Below are positions 8,270-55,336 of a stretch of 64,000 nucleotides of DNA, one piece after another. Location of the stretch: positions 87,038 through 151,037 of the forward strand of contig JAKUQA010000001.1 in the NCBI GenBank assembly GCA_022450525.1, given 5' to 3'. The DNA comes from Dehalococcoidia bacterium (GTDB lineage: Bacteria; Chloroflexota; Dehalococcoidia; Lucifugimonadales; UBA6952). The position numbers and the translations under genes were made by a program. The notes under the pieces are model-generated. The model had not been told where the DNA came from and made no database searches. It worked only from the letters and a program-made list of their open reading frames with translations. Numbering within the stretch: position 1 is the stretch's first letter; each line of letters starts with the position of its first letter.

Positions 8270-9916
8270 GTGACGCAATCAACCCAAAGGCCTAATATTG
8301 TTTTTATATTTGCGGATGACTGGGGAAGGTATGCAAATGCTTACGCCAAGTTCGAAGGCCCTGATTCTATAAATGCACTTATCGAAACACCTAATTTCAA
8401 TAGAGTTGTAGATGAAGGCGCTATATTTACCAACGCTCATGTCCCTGTGCCAAGCTGCACCCCATGTAGGAGCTCTATTCTGTCCGGCACATACTTCTGG
8501 GAGACAGGATTGGGGGCTATACTGGAGGGTGGTCGTTGGGATGAATCTATACCTACCTACCCGCTAATCCTTGAAGAAAAAGGCTATCACATTGGCTATA
8601 CGTACAAGGTCTGGTCTCCTGGAATTGCGGAAGACGCACCACATGGGGGCTACCGGGCTAAATACGAACCATCAGGTAACAAATGGCGGGAATTTTCAAT
8701 TGAAGCTACCAAGCTTGTTCCCGAGATGGGTGTGGAAGCGGCCAAGGAAGTCCTGTATGACGAAACCCGTAGTAACTTTGCTTCATTTCTGGAAGATGTC
8801 CCTGAAGGTGATCCGTTCTGCTACTGGTGGGGACCCGTTAATACCCACAGAGTATGGGAAAAAGGATCTGGGAAAGACTTGTGGGGTCTGGATCCGGATA
8901 AATTAAAAGGGAAAATGCCGGATTTTCTGCCAGACGTACACGAAATACGGGAAGATTTTAACGATTATCTTGGCGAAGCTCAGGCTGTTGACGCAGGAAT
9001 CGGAATAATACTCGAAGAATTGGATAACATCGGAGAATTGGACAACACATTGATTGTAATTAGTGGCGACCACGGGATTCCGGGGTTTCCTCGTTCAAAG
9101 GCAAATCTCTACGATATTGGAACCCAAGTTACCCTTGCTGCCAGATGGCCCCAAAATATACAGCCAGGAAAAGTGATACACGAATTCGTTAATCTAATGA
9201 ACCTTGCCCCAACTTTTCTCGAAGCTGCTGGTGAAACTCCTCCTGATCAAATGGTGGAAAGTCTTCTTCCTTTAATGACAGCATCGACCTCAGGTGAATC
9301 AAGTTTTGGCTCCGGTTACGTTATTACAGGTAGGGAACGGCACGTTGCGTTGTCTCAACAGGATGGCAAACCCTATCCTTCTAGAGCCATCAGGACTCAA
9401 GACTACTTGTATATACGTAATTTCGCTCCTGATAGATGGCCGAGTGGGCATCCGGGAGAATTGATTGATCCGAACATAGTGGACCCAGAGAAAATGGCCG
9501 AATTAGGAGCTTTTCGTGGCATGCGCAGTTCAGTTTATCACGACTTAGATGGTGGCCCGACAAAAGAATGGCTCCTAACGAATCGAAGTAAGCCCGACGT
9601 GAAACCGAAATTTGACCTTTGCTTTGGAAAGAGGCCTGCAGAAGAGCTATATGATTTGAAATCTGACCCAGACTATTTAATCAATGTGGCAGGAGATCCA
9701 GAGTACTCTGAAACTGTGAAAGAGCTTTCATCTAAACTCCTCAAAACGTTACAAGATCGCAATGATCCGAGACTCGAAGGGGAAAATTGTAAATTTGAAC
9801 ATCCCCCTTTTGCAGGACCAGTGGAAGCAAAATGGTATGAAGAACGTTATAGTCAAATTGAGGATAGAAAACGCAGAGCACGTGCTAATTCATCTAAGCA
9901 TCTCAAATCACAATAA
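8270..9916 (+). CDS. Sulfatase (formylglycine-dependent arylsulfatase family), no evident signal peptide
   Basis: 548 aa. N-terminal NIVFIFADDWG, the CxPxR maturation motif SCTPCRSSILSG, and GDHG in the metal site. GTG start. Confidence 0.85.
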   Translation: MTQSTQRPNIVFIFADDWGRYANAYAKFEGPDSINALIETPNFNRVVDEGAIFTNAHVPVPSCTPCRSSILSGTYFWETGLGAILEGGRWDESIPTYPLILEEKGYHIGYTYKVWSPGIAEDAPHGGYRAKYEPSGNKWREFSIEATKLVPEMGVEAAKEVLYDETRSNFASFLEDVPEGDPFCYWWGPVNTHRVWEKGSGKDLWGLDPDKLKGKMPDFLPDVHEIREDFNDYLGEAQAVDAGIGIILEELDNIGELDNTLIVISGDHGIPGFPRSKANLYDIGTQVTLAARWPQNIQPGKVIHEFVNLMNLAPTFLEAAGETPPDQMVESLLPLMTASTSGESSFGSGYVITGRERHVALSQQDGKPYPSRAIRTQDYLYIRNFAPDRWPSGHPGELIDPNIVDPEKMAELGAFRGMRSSVYHDLDGGPTKEWLLTNRSKPDVKPKFDLCFGKRPAEELYDLKSDPDYLINVAGDPEYSETVKELSSKLLKTLQDRNDPRLEGENCKFEHPPFAGPVEAKWYEERYSQIEDRKRRARANSSKHLKSQ

Positions 9917-12927: not shown

Positions 12928-15477
<2,550 letters not shown>

Positions 15478-20605: not shown

Positions 20606-21439
20606 GTGATGACTCAAGGCAAAGCGTTAACGCCTGAACAAGTCAATAGATATAGTAGACATATAATTATGCCTCAAATTGGCAGTTTGGGCCAAAGAAA
20701 ACTGATAAATTCAAAAGCAGTTGTGATTGGTGCTGGAGGACTCGGTGGTCCAGTTGCTCTCTATCTTGCCTTAGCTGGCGTAGGTACTATTGGTATTGTT
20801 GATTTTGATACTGTAGATCTAACAAATCTACAAAGACAGGTTTTACATGATAGCGAATCAATTGGAATGCCCAAAGTAGAATCCGCATCTAAAACACTAA
20901 AAAGATACAATCCAAATGTTAATGTTGTAACTCATGAAACTCCAATAAATTCTACAAATGCCATGGAGATTTTAGGCCAATACGATATTGTAATAAATGG
21001 CGCTGATAATTTTCCAACACGCTATCTCGTTAATGATGCTTGCTACTTTTTGAAAAAACCTTTAGTAGATGGAAGTATACTTATGTTTGATGGTCAAGCA
21101 ACAACTTATATACCTGGATCCGATAATGCCTGCTATAGATGTTTATTTAAAGAACCTCCACCTCCTGGGTCCGTGCCAACATGTGCCGAAGCTGGTGTTT
21201 TAGGTGCGCTTACTGCTACCATTGGAAGCATACAGGCAACTGAGGTAGTTAAAGTATTATTGGATATAGGAACTCCTTTGGTAAATAGACTCCTATTGTA
21301 TGATGGTTTAAGTTTAGATTTCAGAGTTGTTAAGTATAGAAAAAATAAAGAGTGTCCATTGTGTAATGGATCACAAACAGAACTTATTGATTATTTAGAA
21401 TTTTGTGGATTGCCCGCTTCAAGTGAATTGGTTGGCTAA
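20606..21439 (+). CDS. ThiF/MoeB/HesA-family E1-like adenylyltransferase (no rhodanese domain)
   Basis: 277 aa. YSRHI...GxGGLGG nucleotide loop, and the CxxC...CAEAGVLG zinc and active-site cysteine region. Confidence 0.85.
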   Translation: MMTQGKALTPEQVNRYSRHIIMPQIGSLGQRKLINSKAVVIGAGGLGGPVALYLALAGVGTIGIVDFDTVDLTNLQRQVLHDSESIGMPKVESASKTLKRYNPNVNVVTHETPINSTNAMEILGQYDIVINGADNFPTRYLVNDACYFLKKPLVDGSILMFDGQATTYIPGSDNACYRCLFKEPPPPGSVPTCAEAGVLGALTATIGSIQATEVVKVLLDIGTPLVNRLLLYDGLSLDFRVVKYRKNKECPLCNGSQTELIDYLEFCGLPASSELVG

Positions 21440-21456
21440 TTAAGATAGGTAAAATA

Positions 21457-22428
21457 TTGTCTTCTAAGGAATTAAAGTCAAAGAATAATAACCAAACTGA
21501 TCGTCCTGGGATTTTGAAAGCTGTAGGAAATACTCCTTTAGTTGAAATGCCAAATATTTCTATTAATGAAAATGTGAGACTTTTTGCTAAATTAGAAGGA
21601 ACAAATCCAACTGGAAGTGTTAAAGACCGAATAGCTTTAAAAATGATCGAGATGGCCGAAGAAAAGGGTGAAATCAAAAAGGGTGACACCGTTCTTGAGC
21701 CTTCAAGTGGTAATACTGGAATAGGTTTAGCGATGGTTTGTAAATTAAAAGGCTATAAACTTGAAATTGTGCTTCCTGAAAATGTAAGTCCAGAGAGAGT
21801 ACAATTATTGACTGCCTATGGTGCAAAAATCCATTTTTCTGATGGTGAAAAAGGTACAAATGGTTCCATAGAAGTTGCCAAAGAAATGGTATCTTCAGGA
21901 AATTATTTCTTCCCTTATCAATATGGTAATGAAGCAAATCCTTTAGCGCATTATTATGGAACAGGTAAGGAAATAATAGATCAATTGCCAGAGGTGGATA
22001 TTTTTGTTGCGGGTTTAGGCACAGGCGGTACATTAATGGGTACGGGTAGAAGGTTGAAGGAATTTAACCCAGAAATAAAAGTTGTTGCAGCTGCTCCACA
22101 GCCTGGGGACGCCATACAAGCATTAAGAAGTATAGAGGATGGATTTGTTCCACCAATATTAGATCTCGACCTATTAGATGCAAGAATAATGGTGTCTAGT
22201 GAAGAAGCTTTTAAGGCAACAAAAATGCTATTAGATGATGAGGGAATATTTGCTGGAATATCATGCGGAGCTGTTGTGGCAAGTGCATTAAAGGTTGCTA
22301 GACGTTTAGATAAAGGAAACATTGTTTGTCTTTTGGCCGATGCTGGTTGGAAATATTTGAGTACAAATCTATGGACTAAAGAATATTCGGACCTTCAGGA
22401 AGAGCTCGAAAGTAAACTTTGGTGGTAA
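21457..22428 (+). CDS. PLP-dependent cysteine synthase (CysK/CysM family)
   Basis: 323 aa. NPTGSVKDR PLP-lysine motif and the SSGNTG loop. TTG start 17 nt after the E1-like gene. Confidence 0.85.
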   Translation: MSSKELKSKNNNQTDRPGILKAVGNTPLVEMPNISINENVRLFAKLEGTNPTGSVKDRIALKMIEMAEEKGEIKKGDTVLEPSSGNTGIGLAMVCKLKGYKLEIVLPENVSPERVQLLTAYGAKIHFSDGEKGTNGSIEVAKEMVSSGNYFFPYQYGNEANPLAHYYGTGKEIIDQLPEVDIFVAGLGTGGTLMGTGRRLKEFNPEIKVVAAAPQPGDAIQALRSIEDGFVPPILDLDLLDARIMVSSEEAFKATKMLLDDEGIFAGISCGAVVASALKVARRLDKGNIVCLLADAGWKYLSTNLWTKEYSDLQEELESKLWW

Positions 22429-22446
22429 TATTATAAATGGAGAGCA

Positions 22447-23097
22447 ATGTTAAATTTATTCGTTATTTCAACAAATGGTAAAATATCTGAAGAATTAGAA
22501 TCTGCACTTAAGGCAGAAGATATTTCATTTAATTCTGATTATGGACCAAATGACTCTTCAGATGAACACGATGGAGTTCTCCTTGAACTTACAAAAATAG
22601 ATCATGAGCTCATAAATCAAGCCGAAGATATATCTACAAAGCTGAAAGTACCACTATTTTTGGCAGTAACAAAAGAAGTTCTTCCTTTTTATGATAACTC
22701 ATGGGGTGGTCGCGACTTTTTAACAAATCCGTATCATTTAGGTGAATTTACCGCAAGAATAAAGCAAAAATCCGAAAATAACTCAGGACCAAATCAATCT
22801 ATACCAACTATTATTACAGCACAAAATTTAAGAATTGATACTGAGAAATATGAAGTTTTTGTCGCAGACGTAAAAGTAATGCTAACCTACAAAGAATATA
22901 GATTACTTTGTATTTTGGCAGCAAATCCAGGCAGGGTATTTTCTCGAGAAGTTTTATTAACTGATATTTGGGAATACGATTATTATGGTGGGACCCGTAC
23001 AGTTGATGTTCATATAAGAAGGTTAAGAAGCAAGATAGAAATTAACGGTAATTTTTTTATAGAAACTATACGAAATGTCGGGTATAAGTTCATCTAA
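22447..23097 (+). CDS. OmpR/PhoB-family winged-helix regulator with a degenerate (pseudo-)receiver domain; GlnR-like candidate
   Basis: 216 aa. The C-terminus LTYKEYRLLCILAANPGRVFSREVLL..IW......GTRTVDVHIRRLRSKI...IETIRNVGYKF is a canonical OmpR effector domain. In the N-terminal half, FVISTNG replaces the acidic pair, LLELT replaces the phospho-Asp, and NPY replaces KPF. Confidence 0.75.
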   Translation: MLNLFVISTNGKISEELESALKAEDISFNSDYGPNDSSDEHDGVLLELTKIDHELINQAEDISTKLKVPLFLAVTKEVLPFYDNSWGGRDFLTNPYHLGEFTARIKQKSENNSGPNQSIPTIITAQNLRIDTEKYEVFVADVKVMLTYKEYRLLCILAANPGRVFSREVLLTDIWEYDYYGGTRTVDVHIRRLRSKIEINGNFFIETIRNVGYKFI

Positions 23098-23123: not shown

Positions 23124-23161
23124 TTTACACATAATTAACATTTAATTAACTTCTGTGTAAT
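23124..23161 (+). promoter_or_regulatory. Four 11-bp-phased pentamers TTTAC-n6-TTAAC-n6-TTAAC-n6-GTAAT upstream of amt
   Basis: Read directly from the sequence. The pentamers start at 23124, 23135, 23146 and 23157. Confidence 0.45.
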
Positions 23162-23187
23162 TATTTCTTTATTTTTTTTACCAATAT

Positions 23188-23214
23188 TTAACATTCAAGA
23201 AATAACTATGTAAT
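23188..23214 (+). promoter_or_regulatory. Three 11-bp-phased pentamers TTAAC-n6-GAAAT-n6-GTAAT upstream of amt
   Basis: Read directly from the sequence. The pentamers start at 23188, 23199 and 23210, about 80-100 nt before the amt ATG. Confidence 0.45.
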
Positions 23215-23291
23215 TTTACCGATGCATCATTAATTTAATTATTTCACTAATGTCGATGTTTATTATTCGGCAATTCTATTTGGAGGTTAAA

Positions 23292-24497
23292 ATGAATGAT
23301 ACTGGTAATTTAGCATGGATGATCACCGCGAGCGCATTAGTCCTATTAATGACGCCCGGGTTAGCTTTTTTCTATGGGGGTTTGGTACGAGCTAAAAACA
23401 TAGTAAATACCATGATGTTCAGCTTTATTTCTATGGGTCTTGCAACCATTGTATGGGTTCTCTGGGGGTATAGTTTAGCATTTAGTGGTGGCGGTCCTTT
23501 TATTGGTAACTTAGAAATGATTGGATTAAACGGTTTAGACGTAACTGATGGAGATGCAATTATATTTGTGGCATTTCAAGGTATGTTTGCAATTATTACC
23601 CCTGCACTAATTACAGGAGCATTTGCTGAAAGATTTAAGTTTTCAACATATATGGTTTTCTTAGTTCTTTGGCTAACTTTTGTATACGCTCCTATTTGCC
23701 ACTGGGTTTGGGCTGCAGATGGTTGGTTATTTAAGAGAGGTGCTTTAGATTTTGCTGGTGGTACTGTAGTTCATATCAATGCAGGAATTGCAGCAGTGGC
23801 GGCAGCATGGCTTCTGGGCCCTAGAAGAAATATAAGTTCGGGGATTGAGCCACACAGTGTACCCTTTGTTTTATTAGGAGCAGGATTGCTTTGGTTTGGA
23901 TGGTTTGGTTTTAATGCAGGGTCTGAACTCGCATCTGATGCTCGGGCAACTATGGCCTTTTTAGTGACCAACATAGCCGCAGGAACAGCTCTAACTGTTT
24001 GGGTGATATTACAATACATAAAGACCGGCAGATTTAGTGCTGTAGGTGCTGCATCTGGGGCTGTAGGTGGTTTAGTAGCTATTACTCCTGCCTCAGGTTT
24101 TGTGAATCCATTAGGAGCACTTGTTATTGGTGCAGGCGCTGGCGCTCTTTGTTATGGTGCAGTTATAGTACGCTCAAATTTTAATCTAGACGATGCTTTA
24201 GAGGTTTTTCCTGTTCATGGTATAGGTGGTATTTGGGGAGCAATTATGACTGGAGTTTTTGCAGTCGAAGCCATAGGGGGCACCAAGGGACTACTAGAAG
24301 GAAATGGATCAATTATGATTGAGCAAATAATAGCTGTAGTAGCTACCCTTGTTTATGGTTTTATTGTAAGTGCGGTAATACTTAAAGTCTTAGATATGGT
24401 GATGGGATTACGCGTTTCTGAAACCGATGAAGATATTGGAACAGATTTAACATCTCATGGAGAGCGTGGATATGTAGCTGATGGTGCTGATGCGTAG
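23292..24497 (+). CDS. amt: Ammonium transporter (Amt/AmtB family)
   Basis: Multi-TM protein with Amt signatures (DFAGGTVVHINAG, GWFGFNAGS, VHGIGGIWG). I moved the start from the track's 23250 to the ATG at 23292, which follows GGAGG by 6 nt and gives a typical MNDTGNLAWM N-terminus. Confidence 0.9.
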   Translation: MNDTGNLAWMITASALVLLMTPGLAFFYGGLVRAKNIVNTMMFSFISMGLATIVWVLWGYSLAFSGGGPFIGNLEMIGLNGLDVTDGDAIIFVAFQGMFAIITPALITGAFAERFKFSTYMVFLVLWLTFVYAPICHWVWAADGWLFKRGALDFAGGTVVHINAGIAAVAAAWLLGPRRNISSGIEPHSVPFVLLGAGLLWFGWFGFNAGSELASDARATMAFLVTNIAAGTALTVWVILQYIKTGRFSAVGAASGAVGGLVAITPASGFVNPLGALVIGAGAGALCYGAVIVRSNFNLDDALEVFPVHGIGGIWGAIMTGVFAVEAIGGTKGLLEGNGSIMIEQIIAVVATLVYGFIVSAVILKVLDMVMGLRVSETDEDIGTDLTSHGERGYVADGADA

Positions 24498-24512: not shown

Positions 24513-24565
24513 TTAACACAATTGTAACCAAAAAGCGAAGAAAAATTCTAACTGTTTGGTATAAT
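24513..24565 (+). promoter_or_regulatory. glnA control region: TTAAC-n6-GTAAC box (24513-24528) plus an extended -10 TGgTATAAT (24557-24565)
   Basis: Read directly from the sequence. The box ends about 32 nt upstream of the -10, so it covers and flanks the -35 region. Confidence 0.45.
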
Positions 24566-24570
24566 CACTA

Positions 24571-24622
24571 GATCGGTATATGTAATTCTTAATCAAGCCT
24601 CGAAGAAATGCATATATCGATC
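24571..24622 (+). other. Hairpin in the glnA 5' leader (12-bp stem, 28-nt loop)
   Basis: GATCGGTATATG (24571-24582) pairs with CATATATCGATC (24611-24622) with one G-U pair. It lies between the predicted -10 and the RBS. Confidence 0.5.
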
Positions 24623-24665
24623 AGTGCTATAAGGAAATCAAAAAAGTGAAGGTTTGAGGTGAAAG

Positions 24666-26108
24666 ATGGCAAATGAACCAAAAAATATAGGCGATGTACT
24701 AAAACTAATGCAAGATACGGGGAGTGATATCCTTGATATTAAATTTATAGATTTACCAGGTACATGGCAACACGTTTCTGTTCCCACAAGTGAAGTTACA
24801 GAGTCTTTGTTTCAAGACGGAACAGGATTTGACGGATCATCGATACGAGGTTTTCAATCAATTGATGAATCGGATATGTTGCTGGTTCCGGATATATCTA
24901 CCGTTAAGAAAGATCCTTTTAACGATGGTCAATTAACAGTTATTGCAGATATAAGAGACCCATTGACTGGTGAAAGTTATTCTAGGGATCCTAGAAATGT
25001 TGCAAAAAAAGCTGAAGCATATTTAAAGACCACGGGAATTGGCGACAATTCATTTTGGGGTCCGGAAGTAGAATTTTTTATATTTGATTCAGTGAGATTT
25101 AGCTATGGGGCAAATCACGGGTATCATTTTGTTGATTCAGATGAAGGTATATGGAATTCTGGTGATTTGACAATGCTAGACGGTACAACCCTTAATAAAG
25201 GAATGAGGCCTAGACATAAAGAAGGATATTTCCCAGTACCCCCTGTTGATACTTTACAAGATATTCGTTCAGAAATGGTTAGGACTTTAATAAATGGATT
25301 TAATATTGCTGTTGAAAAACATCATCATGAAGTTGCTACAGGAGGACAAGGCGAAATAGATATAGTTTTTGATAGTCTTGTACAAACAGCAGATAATGTA
25401 ATGAACTATAAATATGTTGTGAAAAATGTAGCCGCTAAATATGATAAAGTCGTTACATTTATGCCAAAACCACTCTTTAACGATAACGGGACAGGAATGC
25501 ATACACACCAATCTATTTGGAAAGATGGAGTTCCGTTATTTGCTGGTGATGAATATGCCGGTCTATCAAAGCTTGCTTTAAACTATATTGGTGGGCTTAT
25601 CAAACATGGAAAAGCATTAATGGCTTTGGCAGCACCAACTACAAACTCATATAAACGACTAACTCCTGGATTTGAAGCACCGACAATTTTGGCACTTTCG
25701 GCAAGGAATAGATCTGCTGCATGTAGGATTCCTATGTATTTTCAAAATCCTAAGGCTAAGAGAGTAGAATTCCGTTCGGCAGACCCAACATGTAATCCAT
25801 ATTTAACATTCGCCGCAATGTTAATGGCAGGATTAGATGGCATAGAAAATGGCTATGAGCCAGGAGACCCACTAGAATCAGACCTTTTTTCATTAAGTGC
25901 TGAAGATATGGCAAAATTACCTCAAGTTCCAAGTAGTTTGGAAGAAGCACTGCAGGCATTAGAGGACGACCATGAATTTTTATTAAAAGGTGGTGTCTTT
26001 ACTGAGGACTTAATTAGAGGATGGATTGATTTTAAACGTGAAAATGACGTGGATCCTGTTAGGCTTCGCCCTCATCCATATGAATTCTATTTAAGTTTTG
26101 ATGCTTAA
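24666..26108 (+). CDS. glnA: Glutamine synthetase type I (480 aa form)
   Basis: Has the GS beta-grasp and catalytic domain motifs (FDGSSIRGF, NGTGMHTHQS, RVEFRSADPTCNPYL). The adenylylation-site Tyr is replaced (DLFSLSAED versus NLYDLPPEE). Confidence 0.92.
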   Translation: MANEPKNIGDVLKLMQDTGSDILDIKFIDLPGTWQHVSVPTSEVTESLFQDGTGFDGSSIRGFQSIDESDMLLVPDISTVKKDPFNDGQLTVIADIRDPLTGESYSRDPRNVAKKAEAYLKTTGIGDNSFWGPEVEFFIFDSVRFSYGANHGYHFVDSDEGIWNSGDLTMLDGTTLNKGMRPRHKEGYFPVPPVDTLQDIRSEMVRTLINGFNIAVEKHHHEVATGGQGEIDIVFDSLVQTADNVMNYKYVVKNVAAKYDKVVTFMPKPLFNDNGTGMHTHQSIWKDGVPLFAGDEYAGLSKLALNYIGGLIKHGKALMALAAPTTNSYKRLTPGFEAPTILALSARNRSAACRIPMYFQNPKAKRVEFRSADPTCNPYLTFAAMLMAGLDGIENGYEPGDPLESDLFSLSAEDMAKLPQVPSSLEEALQALEDDHEFLLKGGVFTEDLIRGWIDFKRENDVDPVRLRPHPYEFYLSFDA

Positions 26109-26274: not shown

Positions 26275-27621
26275 ATGGACCAAGAAAAAAGTAGAGATGA
26301 AGCTATTAAATTTGTCACAGAGACCGTACATGGCAGTGATGTTCGATTTGTGCGACTTTGGTTTACTGATATTTTAGGTAATTTAAAGGGTGTGTCATTA
26401 AATGTGGCTGAGCTCGAAAATTCTCTAAGAGATGGTATGACTTTTGACGGAGCATCTATAGGAGCAATAGCTAGAAACGAGGAAAGCGACCTAGTTTTAA
26501 TGCCGGACCCCACTACATTTAAGGTTTTACCATGGCGTCCTTCAGACGGGGCTGTTGGTAAAATGTTCTGCGATGTGTATCGACCAGACGGTTCTCCTCA
26601 TTTAGGTGATCCTAGGGCTATACTAAAATCAAACTTAGAAAGGGCCTACCAGCTTGGGTACACCTTTTTATTGTCTCCAGAAACAGAATATTATTATTTC
26701 AAAGACTCTAATTCAACTGAGATATTAGATTCTGCTGGATATTTTGATCAAACCTCTGATATAGGAACAGAACTTCGAAGAGAAACAGTATTAGCTTTAG
26801 AAGAAATAGGAATACCTGTTGAATATAGCCATCACGAAGTGTCTCCCAGTCAACATGAAATAAACTTACGCCATACAGATGCGTTAACTATGGCAGATAA
26901 TGTTATGACCTATAAACTTGCTGTCAAGGAAATTGCACAGAAACACGGAATTCACGCCAGTTTTATGCCCAAACCAATAGAAGGTTTACATGGTAATGGA
27001 ATGCATATGGATATGTCTTTGTTTAAAGGAGATATAAATCAATTTTATAAAGACGGTGGAACAGGTGACGATTTTATTTCAGATACTGCGAAGTATTTTA
27101 TTGCTGGGCTTATGAAGCATGCCAAAGAAATTACGGCTATAACCAATCAATGGGTCAACTCTTACAAACGACTTGTTTCTGGATTTGAAGCACCAGGATA
27201 CATTTCGTGGTCAAAACTTAACAGGGGAGATCTTATTAGGGTTCCATCATACAGAAAAGGAAGAGAAAATTCTGTTAGAATTGAATATCGATCACCTGAT
27301 TCTGCATGTAATCCCTATCTAGCATTTAGTGCTATTCTTGCAGCAGGTTTGGCAGGTATAGAAAACAAGTACGAGATTCCTGTTCCCGTTGAACAAGATA
27401 TAAACAAAATGGACCAGATACAAAGAACTGCCCAGAGTATAGAGTCTTTACCCACTAATCTTTCGGAAGCATTGCACTTTTTTGAGAATAGTGAATTAAT
27501 GTACAATTGTCTTGGAGAAGATGCGTTTTATAACTTTATAAAAAATAAAAAATTAGAATGGGCCGAATATAGCCGTCACGTTAGTGGTTATGAAATAGAT
27601 AAATACCTATCTATGCTTTAG
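26275..27621 (+). CDS. Glutamine synthetase, second paralogue (448 aa, short GSI-alpha-like form)
   Basis: VRFVRLWFTDILG, FDGASI, GNGMHMDMSL and RIEYRSPDSACNPYL motifs. Confidence 0.88.
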   Translation: MDQEKSRDEAIKFVTETVHGSDVRFVRLWFTDILGNLKGVSLNVAELENSLRDGMTFDGASIGAIARNEESDLVLMPDPTTFKVLPWRPSDGAVGKMFCDVYRPDGSPHLGDPRAILKSNLERAYQLGYTFLLSPETEYYYFKDSNSTEILDSAGYFDQTSDIGTELRRETVLALEEIGIPVEYSHHEVSPSQHEINLRHTDALTMADNVMTYKLAVKEIAQKHGIHASFMPKPIEGLHGNGMHMDMSLFKGDINQFYKDGGTGDDFISDTAKYFIAGLMKHAKEITAITNQWVNSYKRLVSGFEAPGYISWSKLNRGDLIRVPSYRKGRENSVRIEYRSPDSACNPYLAFSAILAAGLAGIENKYEIPVPVEQDINKMDQIQRTAQSIESLPTNLSEALHFFENSELMYNCLGEDAFYNFIKNKKLEWAEYSRHVSGYEIDKYLSML

Positions 27622-27632
27622 GAAGGGGAATC

Positions 27633-30600
27633 GTGAGTTTTAATTATAATAATAAAAATAAAGGTCTGTATTATCCATCATTCGATCACGATGCATGTGG
27701 TGTTGGAATGGTTGCGAACATTCATGGTAAGGCCTCAAATAAAATAATTGAGCAAGGGCTAACAATTCTTGATAATTTAGCTCATAGAGGTGCTTGTGGA
27801 GCTGATCCCGATACTGGAGATGGAGGAGGTATATTACTTTCAATTCCACATGAATTTTTTGCAAAACAATTAAATGCAAGTAATGTGAACATACCTGATA
27901 TAGGCGAATATGCTGTAGGTATGGTTTTTATACCCAATAATGCAAAAGACAAAGAGGTCTGCAAAAAGCTAATTGAGGAAATAATTAAAGACGAAAATAT
28001 TGAATTATTGTCATGGAGAGAAGTTCCGATAAAGGATGAAATAATTGGTTATGATGCAAAATCATCTATGCCTTTAATCATGCAGGTTTTTGTTAAAAAG
28101 CCTACTAATATCAATAATGAAGATGATTTTGAAAAAAAATTATACGTACTTAGAAGAAGGATAGAAATTTCTTCCACCAAATTAGATTTAAACAGTCCTG
28201 ATGATTTTTATTTCTGTAGTTTTTCTTGTCGAACAGTTGTTTACAAAGGGCTATTAACCCCTGAACAAGTAAAAGACTTCTATCCAGATTTGAAAGATAC
28301 TTTATTTAAATCTTGGTTTGGATTAGTTCATTCTCGATTTAGTACGAACACTTTAGGGAAATGGAAATTATCACACCCTTACAGATATGTTGCACATAAT
28401 GGAGAAATTAATACTGTTAGAGGAAATAGTAATTGGATGTCTTCTAGAGAAAAGATTATAACATCCGACTCTTTTGGGGAAGATGTTACAAAAATTGTTC
28501 CTATACTTGAACAAGGCGATAGCGACACAGCTTCTCTAGACAAAGTATTTGAATTACTTACATTGAGTGGTCGTTCATTACCACATGTAATGGCTATGAT
28601 GGTACCACAGGCATGGGAGGGTGATAATTCTATTTCTCCTGAACTCCGGGCATTTTATGAATATCATTCGTGTCTTATGGAGCCTTGGGATGGACCTGCT
28701 CTCGTTGCGTTTACCAATGGAAAACAAATTGGTGCCAATTTAGACAGAAATGGATTAAGGCCATTTCGTTTTTCTGTTACAAATGATGGTTTAATTGTGA
28801 TGTCTTCAGAAACAGGTGTTTTAGAACTAGATTCTGAAAAAATTCAAACCAGAGGAAGACTACAACCAGGAAAAATGATGATTGTTGACCCAGAACAAGG
28901 GAGGATTATTTTTGACAATGAAATAAAAGAAGATCTTGCAAAACTACAACCTTATCAGAAATGGGTGACTGAAAATCTAACTAGATTAGAGAATTTACCT
29001 GAAATATCTACTGCCGAAACAAAAGATAATATTGAGAATTTATCACAATTACAAAGATCTTTCGGTTATACGGATGAAGAATTAAGGATGCTTTTAGTGC
29101 CAATGGGACAAAATGGAGCTGAGGCTATTGGTTCTATGGGAACAGATACACCTATCGCTATTCTTTCAAATAAAACACAATCTGTATTTTCTTATTTTAA
29201 ACAATTATTTGCACAGGTTAGTAATCCGCCATTAGATGCAATAAGAGAAGAGTTGGTGACTTCATTAGAGGCACCTGTTGGTTGCGAGCAGGAATTGTTT
29301 AAGGAAACTGACATTCATTGCCAGCAATTAAAGCTATCATCACCTATTTTAACTAATCAAGAATTAGCAAAAATAAAAAACTTGAATAATCCAGGTTTAA
29401 AAACAGCAACTGTCAGTTGTTTGTATAGTATTGAAAATAAAAATGAGGATTTAGAAGAAACCATCAACAAAATTTGTGAAAGAGTTTCAGATGCTATAAA
29501 TGAAGGAAATACTCTAATAGTTTTATCTGATCGGGGTGTTTCGGGTGAAATGGCTGCAATTCCCTCACTTTTAATTCTTGCTGCAGTTCATCATGATTTA
29601 ATTAGAAGAGGTTTACGCTCCAAGGCTGGATTAATTGTTGAATCTGGAGAACCTAGGGAAGTCATGCACTTTGCTCTTTTGCTAGGTTATGGTGCAGCAG
29701 CAATTAATCCTTATCTAGCTTACGCAACTCTTGATTCAATGTTAGATAAGAAAGAAATAAATGTTAAAGATTTAGAATATGCTGTTCTAAATTACAAAAA
29801 AGCTATTCATAAAGGTTTGTTAAAAATCGCGTCTAAAATGGGTATTTCTACTATACAGAGTTATCGTGGAGCCCAAATATTTGAGTGCATAGGTTTTAAT
29901 GATAAATTAATAGAAAAATACTTCTGCTGGACTCCATCAAGAATCGGTGGAATTGGTATAGAAGAATTAGAACTAGATATGATTGAAAGACATTCTAAGG
30001 GGTTTTCTGAGGAGAGAAGTCCTACGTTACTAGATTTGGATTCAGGAGGACAATATCAATGGAGGCGTGATGGTGAATATCATATGTATAATCCTTTTGC
30101 TATAGCCAAACTCCAGGAATCAGCCCGAATAGGATCATATTCTGTCTACAAAGAATTTGCAGAATTGATTGACAAACAAGATCAGCAATTATCTACCTTG
30201 CGCGGCTTATTAGAATTTAAGGAAATATCAACACCTTTAGATATCTCTGAAGTTGAATCTGCTGACAATATAGTTAAAAGGTTTGCTACAGGTGCCATAT
30301 CACTAGGGGCAATTAGTCCTGAAGCTCATGAAACCTTAGCTATTGCCATGAACAAAATAGGAGCTCGTAGCAATACAGGTGAAGGCGGCGAAGATTCAAG
30401 AAGGTTTTCTTTAGATGAAGATGGTGAAAATAGAAATAGCGCTATAAAACAAGTGGCCTCTGGTAGATTTGGCGTAACTACTAACTATTTAGTCAATGCA
30501 ACAGATTTGCAAATTAAAATGGCACAAGGCTCAAAACCTGGAGAAGGCGGGCAATTACCAGGACATAAAGTGGATGATTATATTGGATGGGTTAGACATA

Positions 30601-32183
30601 CAACACCTGGAGTTGAATTAATATCACCACCACCCCATCATGATATTTATTCCATAGAGGACTTAGCACAACTTATTCATGATTTAAAAAATGTAAACTC
30701 AAATGCAAGAATACATGTAAAGCTGGTAGCTGAAGCAGGAGTTGGTACGATTGCTGCTGGTGTATCAAAAGGCCATGGCGACGTCGTGCTTATAAGTGGA
30801 GATAGCGGGGGAACAGGAGCCTCTCCTGAAACATCTATTAAACATGCTGGATTGCCTTGGGAGTTAGGTATTGCTGAAACTCAACAGGTTTTAGTGGAAA
30901 ATGATTTAAGAGGAAGAATTGTTGTCCAGGCAGATGGGCAACTTAAAACTGGTAGAGATGTAGCAATTGCTTGTTTGCTTGGTGCAGAGGAATTTGGTTT
31001 TGCTACAGCACCTTTGGTAACAATGGGTTGTATTATGTTGAGAAAATGCCACTTAAACGCTTGTTCTGTAGGTATAGCAACACAAGATTCTGAACTCAGG
31101 AAAAATTTTGCAGGAAAACCTGAACACGTTATTAATTATTTTTATTTCATAGCTGAACATATGCGAGAAATTATGGCAAGTTTAGGATTTAAAACAGTTA
31201 ATGAAATGATTGGTCGTGTAGATAAGCTGGATAGTAGAGTAGCGATTGATCACTGGAAGGCAAAGGGATTAGATTTTTCTAAATTACTATATAAACCACA
31301 AAGATTTGACGAAGTAGATACATACTGTGTGTCAGATCAAGACCATGCATTGGATAAAGCGTTAGATAATATTTTGATTGAAAACGCAGAATTAGCTATT
31401 AATAACGGGGAAAACGTAACCATTTCACATCAAATTAAGAATTCTAATAGAACAGTTGGTGCGATGTTAAGTGGCGAGGTGGCAAAAAAATATGGTGAGG
31501 ACGGGCTAAAGGAGAATACCATAAATGTAGAGTTTAAAGGTTCTGCAGGTCAGAGTTTTGGAGCCTTTTTGGCCAAAGGAATTACTTTCAATTTAGAAGG
31601 TGATGCAAATGATTACATCGGTAAGGGAATGTCTGGAGGAAGAATTTCGGTAAGACCCCCCAAGGAATCTAAATTTATTCCTGAAGAAAATATCATTACT
31701 GGTAACGTTAGTTTATATGGAGCTACTGGTGGCGAAATGTATTTGAGAGGAATGGCTGGCGAACGATTTGCTGTAAGAAATAGTGGTGCAATGGCGGTTG
31801 TTGAAGGTGTTGGTGATCATGGCTGTGAATATATGACTGGCGGGATAGTTGTTGTTTTAGGAAGTACTGGCAGAAATTTTGCAGCAGGTATGAGTGGCGG
31901 TATTTCATATGTTTATGATCCAGATGGAACATTTATTGATAAATGTAATAGTGAAATGGTAAAAATTGGTCCTTTAGATATTTCTGAAGATGAGATTGTT
32001 TTGAAAAATTTGATTGAAAATCATCTTGAATATACAGGTAGTGAAAATGCAAATAAAATCCTCAATAATTGGGAACAATCAAAAGAATCATTTATAAAAG
32101 TTATGCCAAGTGCATATGCATTGGTTTTGGAACAACAAGGTTTAGCGTTACCGAAAGAAATGGAGAAGATTTTGAATGGGTAA
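27633..32183 (+). CDS. gltB: Glutamate synthase large subunit
   Basis: 1516 aa. N-terminal amidotransferase Cys (HDACGVG), the FMN / 3Fe-4S region, and a C-terminal GXGXG beta-helix. GTG start 11 nt after the preceding gene. Confidence 0.95.
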   Translation: MSFNYNNKNKGLYYPSFDHDACGVGMVANIHGKASNKIIEQGLTILDNLAHRGACGADPDTGDGGGILLSIPHEFFAKQLNASNVNIPDIGEYAVGMVFIPNNAKDKEVCKKLIEEIIKDENIELLSWREVPIKDEIIGYDAKSSMPLIMQVFVKKPTNINNEDDFEKKLYVLRRRIEISSTKLDLNSPDDFYFCSFSCRTVVYKGLLTPEQVKDFYPDLKDTLFKSWFGLVHSRFSTNTLGKWKLSHPYRYVAHNGEINTVRGNSNWMSSREKIITSDSFGEDVTKIVPILEQGDSDTASLDKVFELLTLSGRSLPHVMAMMVPQAWEGDNSISPELRAFYEYHSCLMEPWDGPALVAFTNGKQIGANLDRNGLRPFRFSVTNDGLIVMSSETGVLELDSEKIQTRGRLQPGKMMIVDPEQGRIIFDNEIKEDLAKLQPYQKWVTENLTRLENLPEISTAETKDNIENLSQLQRSFGYTDEELRMLLVPMGQNGAEAIGSMGTDTPIAILSNKTQSVFSYFKQLFAQVSNPPLDAIREELVTSLEAPVGCEQELFKETDIHCQQLKLSSPILTNQELAKIKNLNNPGLKTATVSCLYSIENKNEDLEETINKICERVSDAINEGNTLIVLSDRGVSGEMAAIPSLLILAAVHHDLIRRGLRSKAGLIVESGEPREVMHFALLLGYGAAAINPYLAYATLDSMLDKKEINVKDLEYAVLNYKKAIHKGLLKIASKMGISTIQSYRGAQIFECIGFNDKLIEKYFCWTPSRIGGIGIEELELDMIERHSKGFSEERSPTLLDLDSGGQYQWRRDGEYHMYNPFAIAKLQESARIGSYSVYKEFAELIDKQDQQLSTLRGLLEFKEISTPLDISEVESADNIVKRFATGAISLGAISPEAHETLAIAMNKIGARSNTGEGGEDSRRFSLDEDGENRNSAIKQVASGRFGVTTNYLVNATDLQIKMAQGSKPGEGGQLPGHKVDDYIGWVRHTTPGVELISPPPHHDIYSIEDLAQLIHDLKNVNSNARIHVKLVAEAGVGTIAAGVSKGHGDVVLISGDSGGTGASPETSIKHAGLPWELGIAETQQVLVENDLRGRIVVQADGQLKTGRDVAIACLLGAEEFGFATAPLVTMGCIMLRKCHLNACSVGIATQDSELRKNFAGKPEHVINYFYFIAEHMREIMASLGFKTVNEMIGRVDKLDSRVAIDHWKAKGLDFSKLLYKPQRFDEVDTYCVSDQDHALDKALDNILIENAELAINNGENVTISHQIKNSNRTVGAMLSGEVAKKYGEDGLKENTINVEFKGSAGQSFGAFLAKGITFNLEGDANDYIGKGMSGGRISVRPPKESKFIPEENIITGNVSLYGATGGEMYLRGMAGERFAVRNSGAMAVVEGVGDHGCEYMTGGIVVVLGSTGRNFAAGMSGGISYVYDPDGTFIDKCNSEMVKIGPLDISEDEIVLKNLIENHLEYTGSENANKILNNWEQSKESFIKVMPSAYALVLEQQGLALPKEMEKILNG

Positions 32184-33639
32184 ACCATTGGGATTCAAGG
32201 ATTTTAAAAGAGAGACACCAAAAAAAATAGATGCTAATGCAAGAATAGCAAATTGGAAAGAAATATATTTGAAATGGCCAGAATCAGAGATAAGAGATCA
32301 AGGAGCTCGCTGCATGGATTGTGGCGTTCCATTTTGTCACACTGGATGTCCTTTAGGAAATATAATTCCAGAATTTAATGATCTAGTTTATAAAGGCGAA
32401 TGGCAAAAGGCACTGGAAGTATTGCATTCAACAAATAATTTCCCTGAATTTACAGGAAGAATTTGCCCTGCTCCATGTGAAGCAGCTTGTGTTTTAAATA
32501 TTAATCAGGATCCTGTGACTATAGAATACATCGAAAAATCGATTATAGAAACAGGTTTTGAAAACGGATGGGTTGTGCCTCAAGAACCCAAAATAAGAAC
32601 TGGGAAAAAGGTCGCTGTTGTTGGTTCAGGACCAGCAGGCTTAGCTGCTGCACATCAATTAAATAAATCTGGACACACAGTCACAGTCTATGAGAGAGAT
32701 GATTACATTGGAGGATTACTACGAATCGGAATTCCTGAATTTAAACTAGAAAAATCTGTTGTTCAGAGAAGAGTTGATTTAATGTCTGAAGAAGGGATTA
32801 AGTTTGTAACTGGAACTAATATAGGAATTGATATAAAGCACGATGAATTATTAGATTCGTTCGATGCTATCTGTTTAAGTGGAGGGTCTACTATACCTCG
32901 AGATTTACCAATCCCTGGAAGAGATCTTAAGGGAGTTTATTTTGCGATGGAATATCTAAGTCAGCAAAATAAAGAACTTTCTGGAGAGTATATAGATTCA
33001 GATGAAAAAATTTCAGCAGAAGGTAAGAAGGTTGTTATTATTGGTGGTGGTGATACTGGTGCAGATTGTTTAGGAACAGCACATAGACAAGGGGCAGAAA
33101 TAATATATCAATACGAATTACTTTCAGAACCTCCTCTCGAAAGATCAAACAATAATCCGTGGCCTTATTGGCCCCTTATACTCAGAATTTCCTCTGCTCA
33201 TGAAGAAGGTGGTACAAGAGAATTTAGCGTATTAACAAAATCCTTTTCTGGTGAGAATGGTGTACTGAAATCATTGCAAGGTGTCAAAATTGAATGGATA
33301 CAAGATGAGAATGGTAGACCAATAATGTCTGAAATTCCAGGGACTGAATTTGAAATAGAAGTCGATTTAGTTTTATTAGCAATGGGTTTTGTTCATCCGC
33401 AACAGGAAGGAATTATTGACCAACTAGGAATTGAACTGGATGGACGCAATAACGTTAATACGAATATTCAACATATGACGAATGTTGATAAAGTTTTTTC
33501 TGCTGGTGATATGCATAGAGGACAATCGCTTGTTGTTTGGGCTATAGCTGAAGGTAGGGAAGCTGCATATCATATAGACAAATATCTTATGGGTGTTACT
33601 GAACTACCTCAGAGTTTACCCGGGGCATTACCTAGATAA
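32176..33639 (+). CDS. gltD: Glutamate synthase small subunit (NAD(P)H-dependent)
   Basis: 487 aa. Cys clusters CMDCGVPFCH and CPAPCEAAC, plus the dinucleotide fold VAVVGSGPAGLAAA. Overlaps gltB by 8 nt. Confidence 0.93.
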   Translation: MGKPLGFKDFKRETPKKIDANARIANWKEIYLKWPESEIRDQGARCMDCGVPFCHTGCPLGNIIPEFNDLVYKGEWQKALEVLHSTNNFPEFTGRICPAPCEAACVLNINQDPVTIEYIEKSIIETGFENGWVVPQEPKIRTGKKVAVVGSGPAGLAAAHQLNKSGHTVTVYERDDYIGGLLRIGIPEFKLEKSVVQRRVDLMSEEGIKFVTGTNIGIDIKHDELLDSFDAICLSGGSTIPRDLPIPGRDLKGVYFAMEYLSQQNKELSGEYIDSDEKISAEGKKVVIIGGGDTGADCLGTAHRQGAEIIYQYELLSEPPLERSNNNPWPYWPLILRISSAHEEGGTREFSVLTKSFSGENGVLKSLQGVKIEWIQDENGRPIMSEIPGTEFEIEVDLVLLAMGFVHPQQEGIIDQLGIELDGRNNVNTNIQHMTNVDKVFSAGDMHRGQSLVVWAIAEGREAAYHIDKYLMGVTELPQSLPGALPR

Positions 33640-33694: not shown

Positions 33695-35386
33695 GTGGAT
33701 ATGCAAACGCTTAGGATAGCAATGGCACAAATTAATCCTGTTGTGGGCGATATTCAAGGCAACACGGATAAGATTAAGAATTACATAAAACAAGCTCAAA
33801 AGGAAAATGTGGATGTTATAACCTTTCCTGAACTTGCGTTAACTGGATATCCACCTGAAGATTTATTATTCAAGACCCACTTCATAAACGACATCAAGAA
33901 ACATTTAGAAGAAGTTACAAAATCTACACAAGGAATAACTGCAATCATTGGTTTAGCGCGAGAGGAAAATGGATTACTAAATTCTGCAGCAGTTATATAT
34001 GACAGAAAAATCATTAATTTTTATGATAAAAAAATCCTTCCCAATTATGGCGTATTCGACGAAAAGAGATATTTTATATCTGGTAAAAATAACCCTGTAT
34101 ATTTAATTAATGGAATAACTGTAGGTATAAATATATGTGAAGATATTTGGTTTGAAGATGGACCAACCAAAGATCAAGCTGATTTAGGCGCACAATTAAT
34201 ATTGAATATTAATGGTTCTCCTTTTGATACTGAAAAAAGAGATATTCGTGAAAATATGCTTAAAGAGCGTGCATTACACAATAATTTGTATATTAGTTAT
34301 ACGAATATGGTTGGTGGACAAGATGAGCTTGTTTTTGATGGTGGAAGTGTACTTTTAAATCCAGCTGGAGAAATTATTTCCCGAGGAAAAGCTTTTGAGG
34401 AAGATCTCATAATCACCGATCTATATCTGGAAGAAACTACAAATTTTGTAGAAAGTAATACAAATATTTTTGTTTCAAACACTTTTAAAAATAAAAATCC
34501 CAGAACAATACCTGATAATCACATTGTAGAAATCAGTAAATTGGAGCAAATCCATAAAGCATTAATTTTAGGCACTCGAGATTATGTAAATAAAAGCGGA
34601 TTTACGAAAGTTATATTAGGTTTGTCAGGAGGCATTGATTCTGCGTTAACATGCTATATAGCTGTTAAGGCTTTTGGTAAAGAAAATGTATTAGGAGTTA
34701 TTATGCCTTCCCGTTTTTCTTCAGAGGGTAGTATTACTGATTCACAATTATTGGCAAATAATCTTGGTATAGATACAAAAATAATACCGATTGAGCCTGC
34801 ATATTCGTCATTTTTAGACATGTTATCTGAGTCTTTTGAAGGCACAAGTGTAGATGTTGCTGAAGAAAACCTTCAGGCAAGAATACGAGGTAATATATTA
34901 ATGGCCTTATCTAATAAATTTAATTGGATTACTTTAATTACTGGGAATAAAAGCGAAATGGCAACTGGTTATAGTACTTTGTATGGTGATATGGCTGGTG
35001 GATTTGCAGTACTAAAAGATGTTCCGAAAACATTAGTGTATGAATTATGTAGATATATAAATACCTTACAAGATACAGATTTAATACCTGAAACGATAAT
35101 TACCAAACCACCTAGTGCAGAATTAAGAGAAGATCAAAAAGATGAAGATTCTTTACCTCCCTATGACATACTAGATGCAATCTTAAAATATTATGTGGAG
35201 GAAGATAGATCTTTTCAAGAAATTGTTGATCTAGGTTATGATGAAGCGGTAGTTAAAAGAACTACATTGTTACTTGATAGGAGTGAATATAAAAGAAAAC
35301 AGTCTCCCCCCGGGGTGAAAATCACCCCTAGAAATTTTGGTAGGGATAGAAGGATTCCGTTAATTAATAAGTATAAAAATTGGTGA
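33695..35386 (+). CDS. nadE: Glutamine-dependent NAD+ synthetase (nitrilase-like domain plus synthetase domain)
   Basis: 563 aa. CN-hydrolase N-domain (FPELALTGYPPEDL, ICED) and the SGGIDS PP-loop. The true start may be the ATG at 33701. Confidence 0.9.
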   Translation: MDMQTLRIAMAQINPVVGDIQGNTDKIKNYIKQAQKENVDVITFPELALTGYPPEDLLFKTHFINDIKKHLEEVTKSTQGITAIIGLAREENGLLNSAAVIYDRKIINFYDKKILPNYGVFDEKRYFISGKNNPVYLINGITVGINICEDIWFEDGPTKDQADLGAQLILNINGSPFDTEKRDIRENMLKERALHNNLYISYTNMVGGQDELVFDGGSVLLNPAGEIISRGKAFEEDLIITDLYLEETTNFVESNTNIFVSNTFKNKNPRTIPDNHIVEISKLEQIHKALILGTRDYVNKSGFTKVILGLSGGIDSALTCYIAVKAFGKENVLGVIMPSRFSSEGSITDSQLLANNLGIDTKIIPIEPAYSSFLDMLSESFEGTSVDVAEENLQARIRGNILMALSNKFNWITLITGNKSEMATGYSTLYGDMAGGFAVLKDVPKTLVYELCRYINTLQDTDLIPETIITKPPSAELREDQKDEDSLPPYDILDAILKYYVEEDRSFQEIVDLGYDEAVVKRTTLLLDRSEYKRKQSPPGVKITPRNFGRDRRIPLINKYKNW

Positions 35387-51590: not shown

Positions 51591-54593
<3,003 letters not shown>

Positions 54594-54679: not shown

Positions 54680-54754
54680 CGCGGGGTGGAGCAGTGGCAG
54701 CTCGTCGGGCTCATAACCCGAAGGTCGGCGGTTCGAATCCGTCCCCCGCTACCA
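54680..54754 (+). tRNA. Initiator tRNA-fMet (anticodon CAU), CCA encoded
   Basis: CGCGGGGTGGAGCAGTGGCAGCTCGTCGGGCTCATAACCCGAAGGTCGGCGGTTCGAATCCGTCCCCCGCTACCA. Initiator hallmarks are present: an unpaired 1:72 position (C1/U72), A11:U24, and three consecutive G:C pairs in the anticodon stem. Confidence 0.9.
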
Positions 54755-54818: not shown

Positions 54819-54837
54819 GGTTTTGAAGGAAATGCTA

Positions 54838-54856: not shown

Positions 54857-54929
54857 ATAACGAAAACCACCATTAATTTTATATTTATGTATTTTAATCG
54901 CTTGTCTATTGCTTTTTTCGTTTTGGGTG

Positions 54930-54948
54930 TGTAACATGATTGTAACAT
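54930..54948 (+). repeat. Copy 2 of the exact 19-bp element TGTAACATGATTGTAACAT
   Basis: Lies 92 bp downstream of copy 1 and ends 28 nt before the PII-like ATG. Confidence 0.9.
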
Positions 54949-54976
54949 TTAGTTGAGCTTTGAAAGGAGTATATTA

Positions 54977-55336
54977 ATGATTAAAGTTGAAGCTGTGGTT
55001 AGGCCAGAAAAGGTTAATCAGGTTCTTAATGCATTACAAGAAGCTGGATGTGGTGGATTTCATTATGGAAATGTAACTGGTCAGGGAAAACAACAGGGAG
55101 TAGAAGTCTTTACTGGACGTGGTGGACAATTAGTAAATAGAGCTGCTATGCCTAAAACTGTTATTACAACGGTTATTTCTGATGACAAAAAAGATGCTGT
55201 AATTAATGCTATCTTAGAATCTGCCAGAACTAATGGAGGATCCGTTGGTGACGGAAAGATTTTTCTTAGTAAAGTAGATGAGGCAATTCGTGTAAGTTCT
55301 GGTGAATCAGGAGAAATTGCTATTTCAAAGGCGTAG
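54977..55336 (+). CDS. PII-family nitrogen signal-transduction protein with an atypical T-loop
   Basis: I moved the start to the ATG at 54977, after AAAGGAG. MIKVEAVVRPEKV...GDGKIFLSKVDEAIRV..GE matches the PII fold. The T-loop reads GQGKQQGVEVFTGRGGQ and contains no Tyr. Confidence 0.8.
   Translation: MIKVEAVVRPEKVNQVLNALQEAGCGGFHYGNVTGQGKQQGVEVFTGRGGQLVNRAAMPKTVITTVISDDKKDAVINAILESARTNGGSVGDGKIFLSKVDEAIRVSSGESGEIAISKA

Follow-up and report, generated by a model that had tools for sequence, protein, structure and literature searches.

GlnR is regarded as the master regulator of nitrogen metabolism in actinomycetes. Elsewhere, nitrogen control of the genes for the ammonium transporter (amt), glutamine synthetase (glnA), and PII protein is exerted by MerR-type GlnR/TnrA in Bacillota, NtcA in Cyanobacteria, and NtrC in Proteobacteria, which belong to unrelated protein families and use other operator architectures. 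Actinobacterial GlnR is an orphan OmpR/PhoB regulator whose pseudo-receiver domain lacks the acidic pocket, threonine, and lysine of the active site. It binds pentamers of GTAAC-type consensus separated by six nucleotides (pentamer-n6-pentamer), often as four sites around the -35 position, and its core targets are amt, glnA, and PII. The aspartate of its receiver-like domain (D50 in A. mediterranei, D48 in M. smegmatis) is not phosphorylated, yet it is required for homodimer stability and function (PMC10704036, PMC12632262). In the activator layout of the GlnR complex, the arrays end before the -10 element and replace the -35 element (PMC10235972). Here we describe a glnR-like gene from a marine SAR202 bacterium (Dehalococcoidia) of the phylum Chloroflexota (assembly GCA_022450525.1, contig JAKUQA010000001.1, positions 87,038 to 151,037). 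The window, which is the whole 64-kb stretch of DNA that was analysed, carries this gene immediately upstream of amt and glnA (Table 1). We consider it likely that the gene encodes a GlnR-family transcription factor, that is, a homologue of actinobacterial GlnR and, like it, an OmpR/PhoB orphan with a pseudo-receiver. Its closest known counterparts are the GlnR proteins of M. tuberculosis (Rv0818), S. coelicolor, A. mediterranei, and S. erythraea (PDB entries 8HIH, 8HML, and 8HIG).

The closest matches of the regulator among proteins of known structure are GlnR proteins. A phmmer search of all PDB chains with the single sequence placed 8hig_A, 8hml_A, and 8hih_O on top (E = 2.3e-25 to 5e-23), which are GlnR structures from S. 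erythraea and M. tuberculosis (PMC10235972). A family profile (A1), built from 30 relatives from a large protein database, matched 8hig_A with E = 4.5e-47 and 8hih_O with E = 1e-45, followed by RegX3 at 6.7e-38. The bit scores of the profile were 164 and 159 for GlnR, 134 for RegX3, 131 for VbrR, and 128 for MtrA, and its alignment with GlnR spans approximately residue 40 to the C-terminus. In the large protein database, the regulator matches an identical cluster, a tight clade at 80–88% identity, and, beyond this clade, hundreds of proteins of 205–240 residues at 40–50% identity; an exhaustive profile search returned 1,850 cluster representatives at E ≤ 1e-30. All named relatives come from metagenome-assembled genomes of SAR202, Dehalococcoidia, or Chloroflexi/Chloroflexota, and their public annotation reads only "response regulator" or "PhoP". 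The Pfam family GlnR_1st (PF21695) recognises one relative, P0117, with 28.9 bits (gathering cut-off 27), and matches others at 40–50% identity below the cut-off (P0108 with 26 bits, the rest with E of 4e-4 to 0.04). When one genome of each GTDB species was scanned, Dehalococcoidia, SAR202, Tepidiformaceae, and other Chloroflexota genomes led the list, and Actinomycetota came after them (Glycomyces, Isoptericola, Arthrobacter, Streptomyces, Kribbella, and others). Among these species-representative genomes, the GlnR proteins of Actinomycetota are the closest relatives that lie outside Chloroflexota. Family members also occur in metagenome-assembled genomes labelled Omnitrophota, Haliangiales, and unclassified bacterium (L040, L042, L043, L078; L numbers designate loci of relatives). 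Either mis-binning or transfer beyond Chloroflexota and Actinomycetota may account for these occurrences.

Two maximum-likelihood trees, both calculated as quick searches, place GlnR and the Chloroflexota family in a clan apart from canonical regulators, with Shimodaira–Hasegawa approximate likelihood-ratio support of 100 and 99. The canonical outgroups were PhoB, OmpR, CpxR, KdpE, CreB, and ArcA of E. coli, RegX3 of M. tuberculosis, and VbrR. In both trees, the regulator sits on a long stem within a well-supported Chloroflexota subclade, and the groups are coherent by phylum, without sign of recent transfer. The second tree contained a group of 16 rows with a branch length of 5, which was treated as artefactual, the N-termini being wrong after crude extraction of open reading frames, and was disregarded; only the separation of the canonical regulators and the placement of the regulator were used from this tree.

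The residues that contact DNA in GlnR are fully retained in the regulator. M. tuberculosis GlnR binds its operator through T151, K153, R171, W179, R188, T189, H193, R195, R196, R198, T211, R213, N214, and Y217 (PMC10235972). All 14 are identical in the regulator, compared with 11 in PhoB, the best of the outgroups, and 10 in RegX3. The residue N214 and the glycine pair G185-G186 before the recognition helix are found only in GlnR and the Chloroflexota family, and in none of the eight outgroups. The identity of the regulator as a PhoB-like phosphate regulator was rejected, although part of the recognition helix (RTVDVHIRRLR) is common to both, because the gene context and the sequence of the boxes follow GlnR, as do K149, G181-G182, and N210, which are equivalent to K153, G185-G186, and N214 of GlnR. 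The canonical regulators PhoB, RegX3, and MtrA share the overall fold with the regulator, but they keep the D-D-D-T-K set of active-site residues and partner kinases, score lower, and are split from the family by the tree branch with 99–100% support. Other phosphorylation-independent OmpR/PhoB regulators, namely H. pylori HP1043, C. trachomatis ChxR, and cyanobacterial NblR, likewise have degenerate receivers, form constitutive dimers, and need no kinase to bind direct repeats (PMC12632262), but they differ from the regulator in regulons and recognition residues. The entry 2hqr is among the fold and sequence matches, but it is far weaker than GlnR (3.2e-14 compared with 4.5e-47 for the family profile). 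A preliminary description of the stretch had assigned the protein to the OmpR family and suggested that it is an analogue of GlnR. The family assignment and the relationship to GlnR hold, whereas mere analogy does not: the PDB and Pfam matches, the trees, the DNA-contact residues, and the boxes described below argue that the regulator is homologous to actinobacterial GlnR.

The receiver-like half of the regulator has lost the phosphorylation chemistry. Alignment by MAFFT with E. coli PhoB (sequence from NC_000913) showed that none of the five D-D-D-T-K residues is present; V74 occupies the position of the threonine (PhoB T83), and the remaining substitutions are listed in Table 1. The regulator differs from actinobacterial GlnR in retaining the proline of the KPF motif. 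Across 155 family sequences, the acidic pair is essentially absent, the threonine position is occupied by V, L, or I (likewise V in actinobacterial GlnR), and the lysine position is variable. The loss of the acidic pocket, threonine, and lysine is family-wide and common to actinobacterial GlnR, and it is therefore old and not particular to this regulator. The acceptor position is D in 101 of the 155 sequences, E in 21, N in 10, and S in 6, with Glu in the regulator's own clade (P0001, P0003, P0006, P0007, P0011). The pseudo-receiver is ancestral to the family, and the glutamate is recent. The preliminary description rightly saw a dead receiver without an adjacent histidine kinase, but its suggestion that the glutamate is a phosphomimic was rejected, as the family ancestor was already a pseudo-receiver and most members keep the aspartate. 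The simplest reading is that Glu47 is a charge-conserving replacement of a structural aspartate, since the aspartate of GlnR is structural and unphosphorylated.

The same data bear on the possibility that the protein is a working phospho-dependent response regulator with its cognate kinase elsewhere in the genome. Substitutions of the acidic pair, threonine, or lysine do not always abolish phosphotransfer (PMC12632262). However, the acceptor here is a glutamate, and the acidic pair, threonine, and lysine are all gone; identical losses run through the family and actinobacterial GlnR, whose aspartate is unphosphorylated (PMC10704036). A tblastn search with EnvZ, CpxA, and CreC found no histidine kinase within the window, where the sole HATPase domain is that of GyrB (12928–15468); the single weak match of CreC falls there. 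Phospho-dependence is close to excluded by the sequence.

Trans_reg_C is the sole Pfam domain detected in the regulator, and neither Response_reg, GlnR_1st, nor any other receiver model of Pfam matched it, even at E ≤ 10. A match of AreA_N (E = 0.17) to the N-terminal half searched alone was dismissed as meaningless. The NCBIfam models of MtrA, PhoB, YycF, and similar proteins match below threshold, chiefly over the C-terminal half. Nevertheless, an AlphaFold model built on 30 relatives (predicted local distance difference test score 84, predicted template modelling (TM) score 0.77) contains a receiver-like alpha/beta domain in the N-terminal half, followed by a flexible linker and the winged helix. 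Helix alpha2 is absent from the model (residues 30–42, low confidence), alpha4 is vestigial, and E47 is placed at the end of strand 3. In Foldseek, the entire chain aligns with full-length OmpR/PhoB regulators, among which GlnR chain 8hih_N ranks second and has the top identity (29%); the DNA-binding domains of GlnR 8hml and 8hig match with a TM-score of 0.84 and 48% identity. The regulator is shorter than actinobacterial GlnR (216 compared with approximately 255 residues), with no C-terminal tail and no alpha2.

The missing receiver match in Pfam, the absence of alpha2, and the vestigial alpha4 could indicate that the N-terminal half is a decaying remnant and that the DNA-binding domain alone works, as a constitutive binder. 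However, the ratio of nonsynonymous to synonymous substitution rates (dN/dS) is 0.13–0.16 for the whole gene, 0.19–0.22 for the receiver-like half, and 0.08–0.11 for the DNA-binding half. Both halves of the protein are under purifying selection, and because of its dN/dS the receiver-like half is not decaying. Residues L45, P69, Y82, D83, P95, E100, and R104 of this half are invariant or nearly so across the family, and the receiver-like fold is confidently predicted. We therefore regard a decaying remnant as very improbable. D90, E100, and R104 presumably correspond to D101, E111, and R115 on the alpha4-beta5-alpha5 face of the PhoB dimer.

GlnR-type boxes precede the predicted target genes. 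The motif KTAAC-n6-KTAAC has four matches in the window, compared with 0.70 expected, all on the plus strand: at 23135 upstream of amt, at 24513 upstream of glnA, and at 54839 and 54931 upstream of the PII gene. The glnA box lies inside a block of 23 columns that is invariant among the window, L001, and L003, lineages whose synonymous divergence is 0.5–1.0. No other parts of the intergenic region are as conserved as this box and the extended -10 element TGGTATAAT, which presumably acts as the promoter of glnA. A weight matrix, trained on L005 and L007 only, gives the two PII sites the highest ranks in the window, and both exceed all two-site maxima of 60 simulations (14.1 ± 1.4, largest 17.1). 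The sites upstream of amt and glnA are suggested by their position, register, and conservation.

The boxes are more pronounced in relatives with GC-rich genomes (four-site GTAAC arrays in 11-bp phase at 56–68% GC). In L005 (58% GC), the gene order is regulator, amt, PII, second amt, and glnA; GTAAC-n6-GTAAC-n6-GAAAC-n6-GTAAC precedes amt, and GTAAC-n6-TTAAC-n6-GCAAT-n6-GTAAC lies ahead of the second amt and again ahead of glnA. L007 (60% GC) has equivalent four-site arrays before its amt and glnA. The three arrays of L005 and two of L007 compare with none in simulated sequences (order-2 Markov model, 100 trials per locus). Additional cases were found in L044 (68% GC), L051, and L022. In the first 16 loci (L001–L016), KTAAC-n6-KTAAC occurs only upstream of amt or glnA; further loci contain few matches elsewhere, including within coding regions of L096. 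In L005, L007, L044, and upstream of glnA in the window, the last pentamer ends approximately 10 nt before a -10-like hexamer, and there is no -35 element. In L092 (Tepidiformaceae, 72% GC), GTAAC-n6-GTAAC (L092:3667-3682) lies approximately 45 nt ahead of the gene for the regulator, an arrangement that points to autoregulation in this lineage. A conserved hydrophobic open reading frame of 28–31 residues (for example MSIEAIAGLVSFFVGMVAWIVLPTRVPAQD) is located between the four-site array and the second amt or glnA of GC-rich relatives. Its product may be either a leader peptide or a small membrane peptide under the same control; no equivalent in the window was found by tblastn.

Based on the comparison with GlnR, we propose that the pseudo-receiver maintains a dimeric or higher oligomeric state independently of phosphorylation, with Glu47 giving the carboxylate that the conserved aspartate gives in GlnR. 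The winged helices would bind the phased pentamers head-to-tail. The arrays would take the place of the -35 element and end approximately 10 nt upstream of the -10-like hexamers. With this layout, as in the activation complex of M. tuberculosis GlnR, RNA polymerase would be recruited by the bound protein, which would activate amt, glnA, and PII when nitrogen is limiting. The nitrogen signal may be conveyed by the abundance of the protein, by Ser/Thr phosphorylation or acetylation as in Streptomyces, or by PII or a metabolite. We infer the binding, the direction of control, and the signal from sequence.

Alternatively, the GlnR homologue may be mainly a repressor or a dual regulator that shuts off amt, glnA, and PII at nitrogen plenty. 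The core of PII box 2 is positioned approximately 30 nt upstream of the start codon, probably in the leader, several of the residues that contact RNA polymerase are not conserved, and actinobacterial GlnR represses some of its targets, such as ald (PMC4140684). However, the arrays of glnA and amt, together with their counterparts in L005, L007, and L044, stand where the -35 element would be, with their ends approximately 10 nt from -10-like hexamers, which is the layout of an activator; glnA itself combines an extended -10 with the absence of a -35. A mainly repressive or dual role is therefore unlikely, and we favour activation by a GlnR-family protein.

Several observations weigh against a GlnR-type activator. 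The regulator itself is matched by neither GlnR_1st nor Response_reg, its branch is long (0.9–1.0 in both trees), and the outgroup sampling of the trees is thin, with eight canonical regulators. The aspartate that is essential in GlnR is replaced in the regulator and its close clade, albeit with its charge kept, and the arginine partner of this aspartate in A. mediterranei GlnR has no obvious equivalent. Of the contacts of M. tuberculosis GlnR with RNA polymerase, the regulator keeps five of eight to sigma region 4 and three of six to the beta flap, and this partial set makes the geometry of activation an extrapolation. In the weight-matrix scan of this genome of 36% GC, the sites upstream of amt and glnA score within background, and the three- and four-site scores in the AT-rich window do not exceed the simulated maxima. 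The location of PII box 2 in the leader fits repression or a roadblock better than activation. More distant members of the family adjoin D-glutamate cyclase or rpsU-purQL, not nitrogen genes.

The neighbours of the gene are those given in the preliminary description: amt, glnA, a second glutamine synthetase gene, gltB, gltD, and nadE follow it. The order regulator-amt-(PII)-glnA-glutamine synthetase-gltB is kept in relatives down to 47% protein identity, and a glutamine synthetase gene or amt adjoins the regulator in eight further Chloroflexota species genomes. In contrast to this adjacency of the regulator and its predicted targets, none of the actinobacterial loci examined has nitrogen genes beside the regulator. 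No MerR-type GlnR/TnrA, NtcA, or NtrC was seen in the window.

The regulator is also linked to the thiF/moeB-like and cysK/M-like genes upstream of it. Marine metatranscriptome contigs cover the regulator, and two of them bridge the 18-nt gap to cysK (22333–23022, X1; 21165–22558, X3). Therefore, the regulator is transcribed, probably together with thiF-cysK. The metatranscriptome depth is approximately zero over the region upstream of amt, and glnA is the most covered gene; the data are assembled contigs, in which absent cover proves nothing. The short gap, the contigs, and the recurrence of thiF-cysK beside the regulator in L007, L051, L029, and L033 could mean that the protein controls sulfur and cysteine genes, or an unrelated regulon, and that another protein reads the nitrogen boxes. 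We consider this improbable. Direct pentamers in 11-bp phase are the hallmark of OmpR/PhoB proteins, and the pentamers here have the GlnR consensus sequence, for which the regulator has the complete set of DNA contacts; no such box is present upstream of thiF or cysK in the window; and the linkage to amt and glnA persists in L005, where thiF-cysK is missing from the upstream flank.

Table 1. Features of the regulator locus. Positions refer to the window unless a locus of a relative is named.
Feature	Position	Strand	Remarks
glnR-like gene, 216 residues	22447..23097	+	ATG start; GGAG ribosome-binding site 5 nt 5′ of ATG
Pseudo-receiver (residues ~1–112), linker (113–122), winged-helix DNA-binding domain (123–216)	within 22447..23097	+	
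Trans_reg_C winged helix, residues 143–215	22873..23091	+	Pfam E = 2.6e-25
Codons S8-T9, replacing acidic pair (PhoB E9/D10; FVISTNG)	22468..22473	+	MAFFT alignment
Codon E47 at phospho-acceptor position (PhoB D53; structural Asp of GlnR; LLELT)	22585..22587	+	
Codons N94-P95 (NPY), replacing PhoB K105-P106	22726..22731	+	Pro retained
thiF/moeB-like and cysK/M-like genes	20606..22428	+	18-nt gap to regulator
Ammonium transporter amt, predicted target	23250..24497	+	Pfam Ammonium_transp 3.3e-124
Glutamine synthetase type I, glnA, predicted target	24666..26108	+	TIGR00653 7.9e-184
Second glutamine synthetase	26275..27621	+	
gltB	27633..32183	+	
gltD	32176..33639	+	
nadE	33695..35386	+	
PII-family gene, predicted target	54977..55336	+	Pfam P-II 3.5e-20; tblastn with L005 and L007 PII 2e-28
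amt array 1, TTTAC-n6-TTAAC-n6-TTAAC-n6-GTAAT	23124..23161	+	11-bp register; partly conserved in L001, L003
amt array 2, TTTAC-n6-TTAAC-n6-GAAAT-n6-GTAAT	23177..23214	+	conserved in L001; phased equivalent in L003
glnA box, TTAAC-n6-GTAAC	24513..24528	+	weaker phased pentamers next, at 24535 and 24546
Putative extended -10 of glnA, TGGTATAAT	24557..24565	+	no -35; starts ~10 nt past fourth pentamer position; conserved in L001, L003
PII box 1, GGAAA-n6-GTAAC-n6-GTAAC-n6-CGAAA	54828..54865	+	two-site score 19.4
PII box 2, core GTAAC-n6-GTAAC at 54931–54946	54920..54957	+	two-site score 19.9
Hydrophobic open reading frame of relatives	L005:8679-8771, L005:10324-10419, L007 ~8653-8737		

Several further features of the locus were recorded. 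No ribosome-binding site precedes the listed amt start at 23250; the likely true start is the ATG at 23292, which lies behind GGAGG and gives the usual N-terminus of Amt, and the gene call of a relative (401 residues, L003) agrees with the shorter form. In the glnA leader, the inverted repeat GATCGGTATAT ... ATATATCGATC (24571–24625) is kept in L001 and L003 and has no Rfam match. Rfam contains no riboswitch or leader family that matches near amt, glnA, or PII in the window and three relatives. Scans for consensus promoters and terminators around the regulator, amt, and PII gave counts no higher than those in shuffled sequences and therefore provide no evidence of promoters. Two copies of TGTAACATGATTGTAACAT, 92 bp apart, lie upstream of the PII gene (54837–54856 and 54929–54948); one follows the rRNA/tRNA terminator, and the other falls within the probable leader. 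The 23S rRNA gene (51594–54592) is followed after 87 nt by a tRNA gene (54680–54751); the 5S rRNA gene seems unlinked because Rfam finds none in the window. The second glutamine synthetase, gltB, gltD, and nadE are co-located nitrogen genes, and they are only candidate members of the regulon. No GlnR-type box was found upstream of this block. It is preceded by a near-consensus sigma-70-like TTGACA-17-TACACT and by a perfect hairpin whose conservation extends to L001 and L003 (26163–26253), and its control may differ from that of amt and glnA.

A literature search, which excluded subscription journals, found no paper linking a GlnR-type protein to Chloroflexota, Dehalococcoidia, or SAR202. What appears to be new here is the presence of the GlnR family in another phylum, with a natural Asp-to-Glu variant, and not a new mechanism. 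It is possible, although we suggest it only tentatively, that GlnR-type control is an old system of Chloroflexota and Actinomycetota, inherited from a Terrabacteria ancestor or spread by one ancient exchange, and that the pseudo-receiver is a dedicated module for oligomerisation or sensing in which the carboxylate of Asp or Glu is structural. On this tentative view, the motif KTAAC-n6-KTAAC would mark the nitrogen regulon across Dehalococcoidia and SAR202, including the small hydrophobic peptides that lie behind such boxes. If the regulator is a GlnR-family protein, a well-studied regulatory system would be extended to a second phylum, and the Asp-to-Glu replacement would be a natural experiment on how pseudo-receivers work without phosphorylation. 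SAR202 bacteria, which rank among the ocean's most abundant and least tractable groups, would gain a named regulator, a defined operator, and a first regulon comprising amt, glnA, and PII, and nitrogen control in SAR202 would become directly testable.

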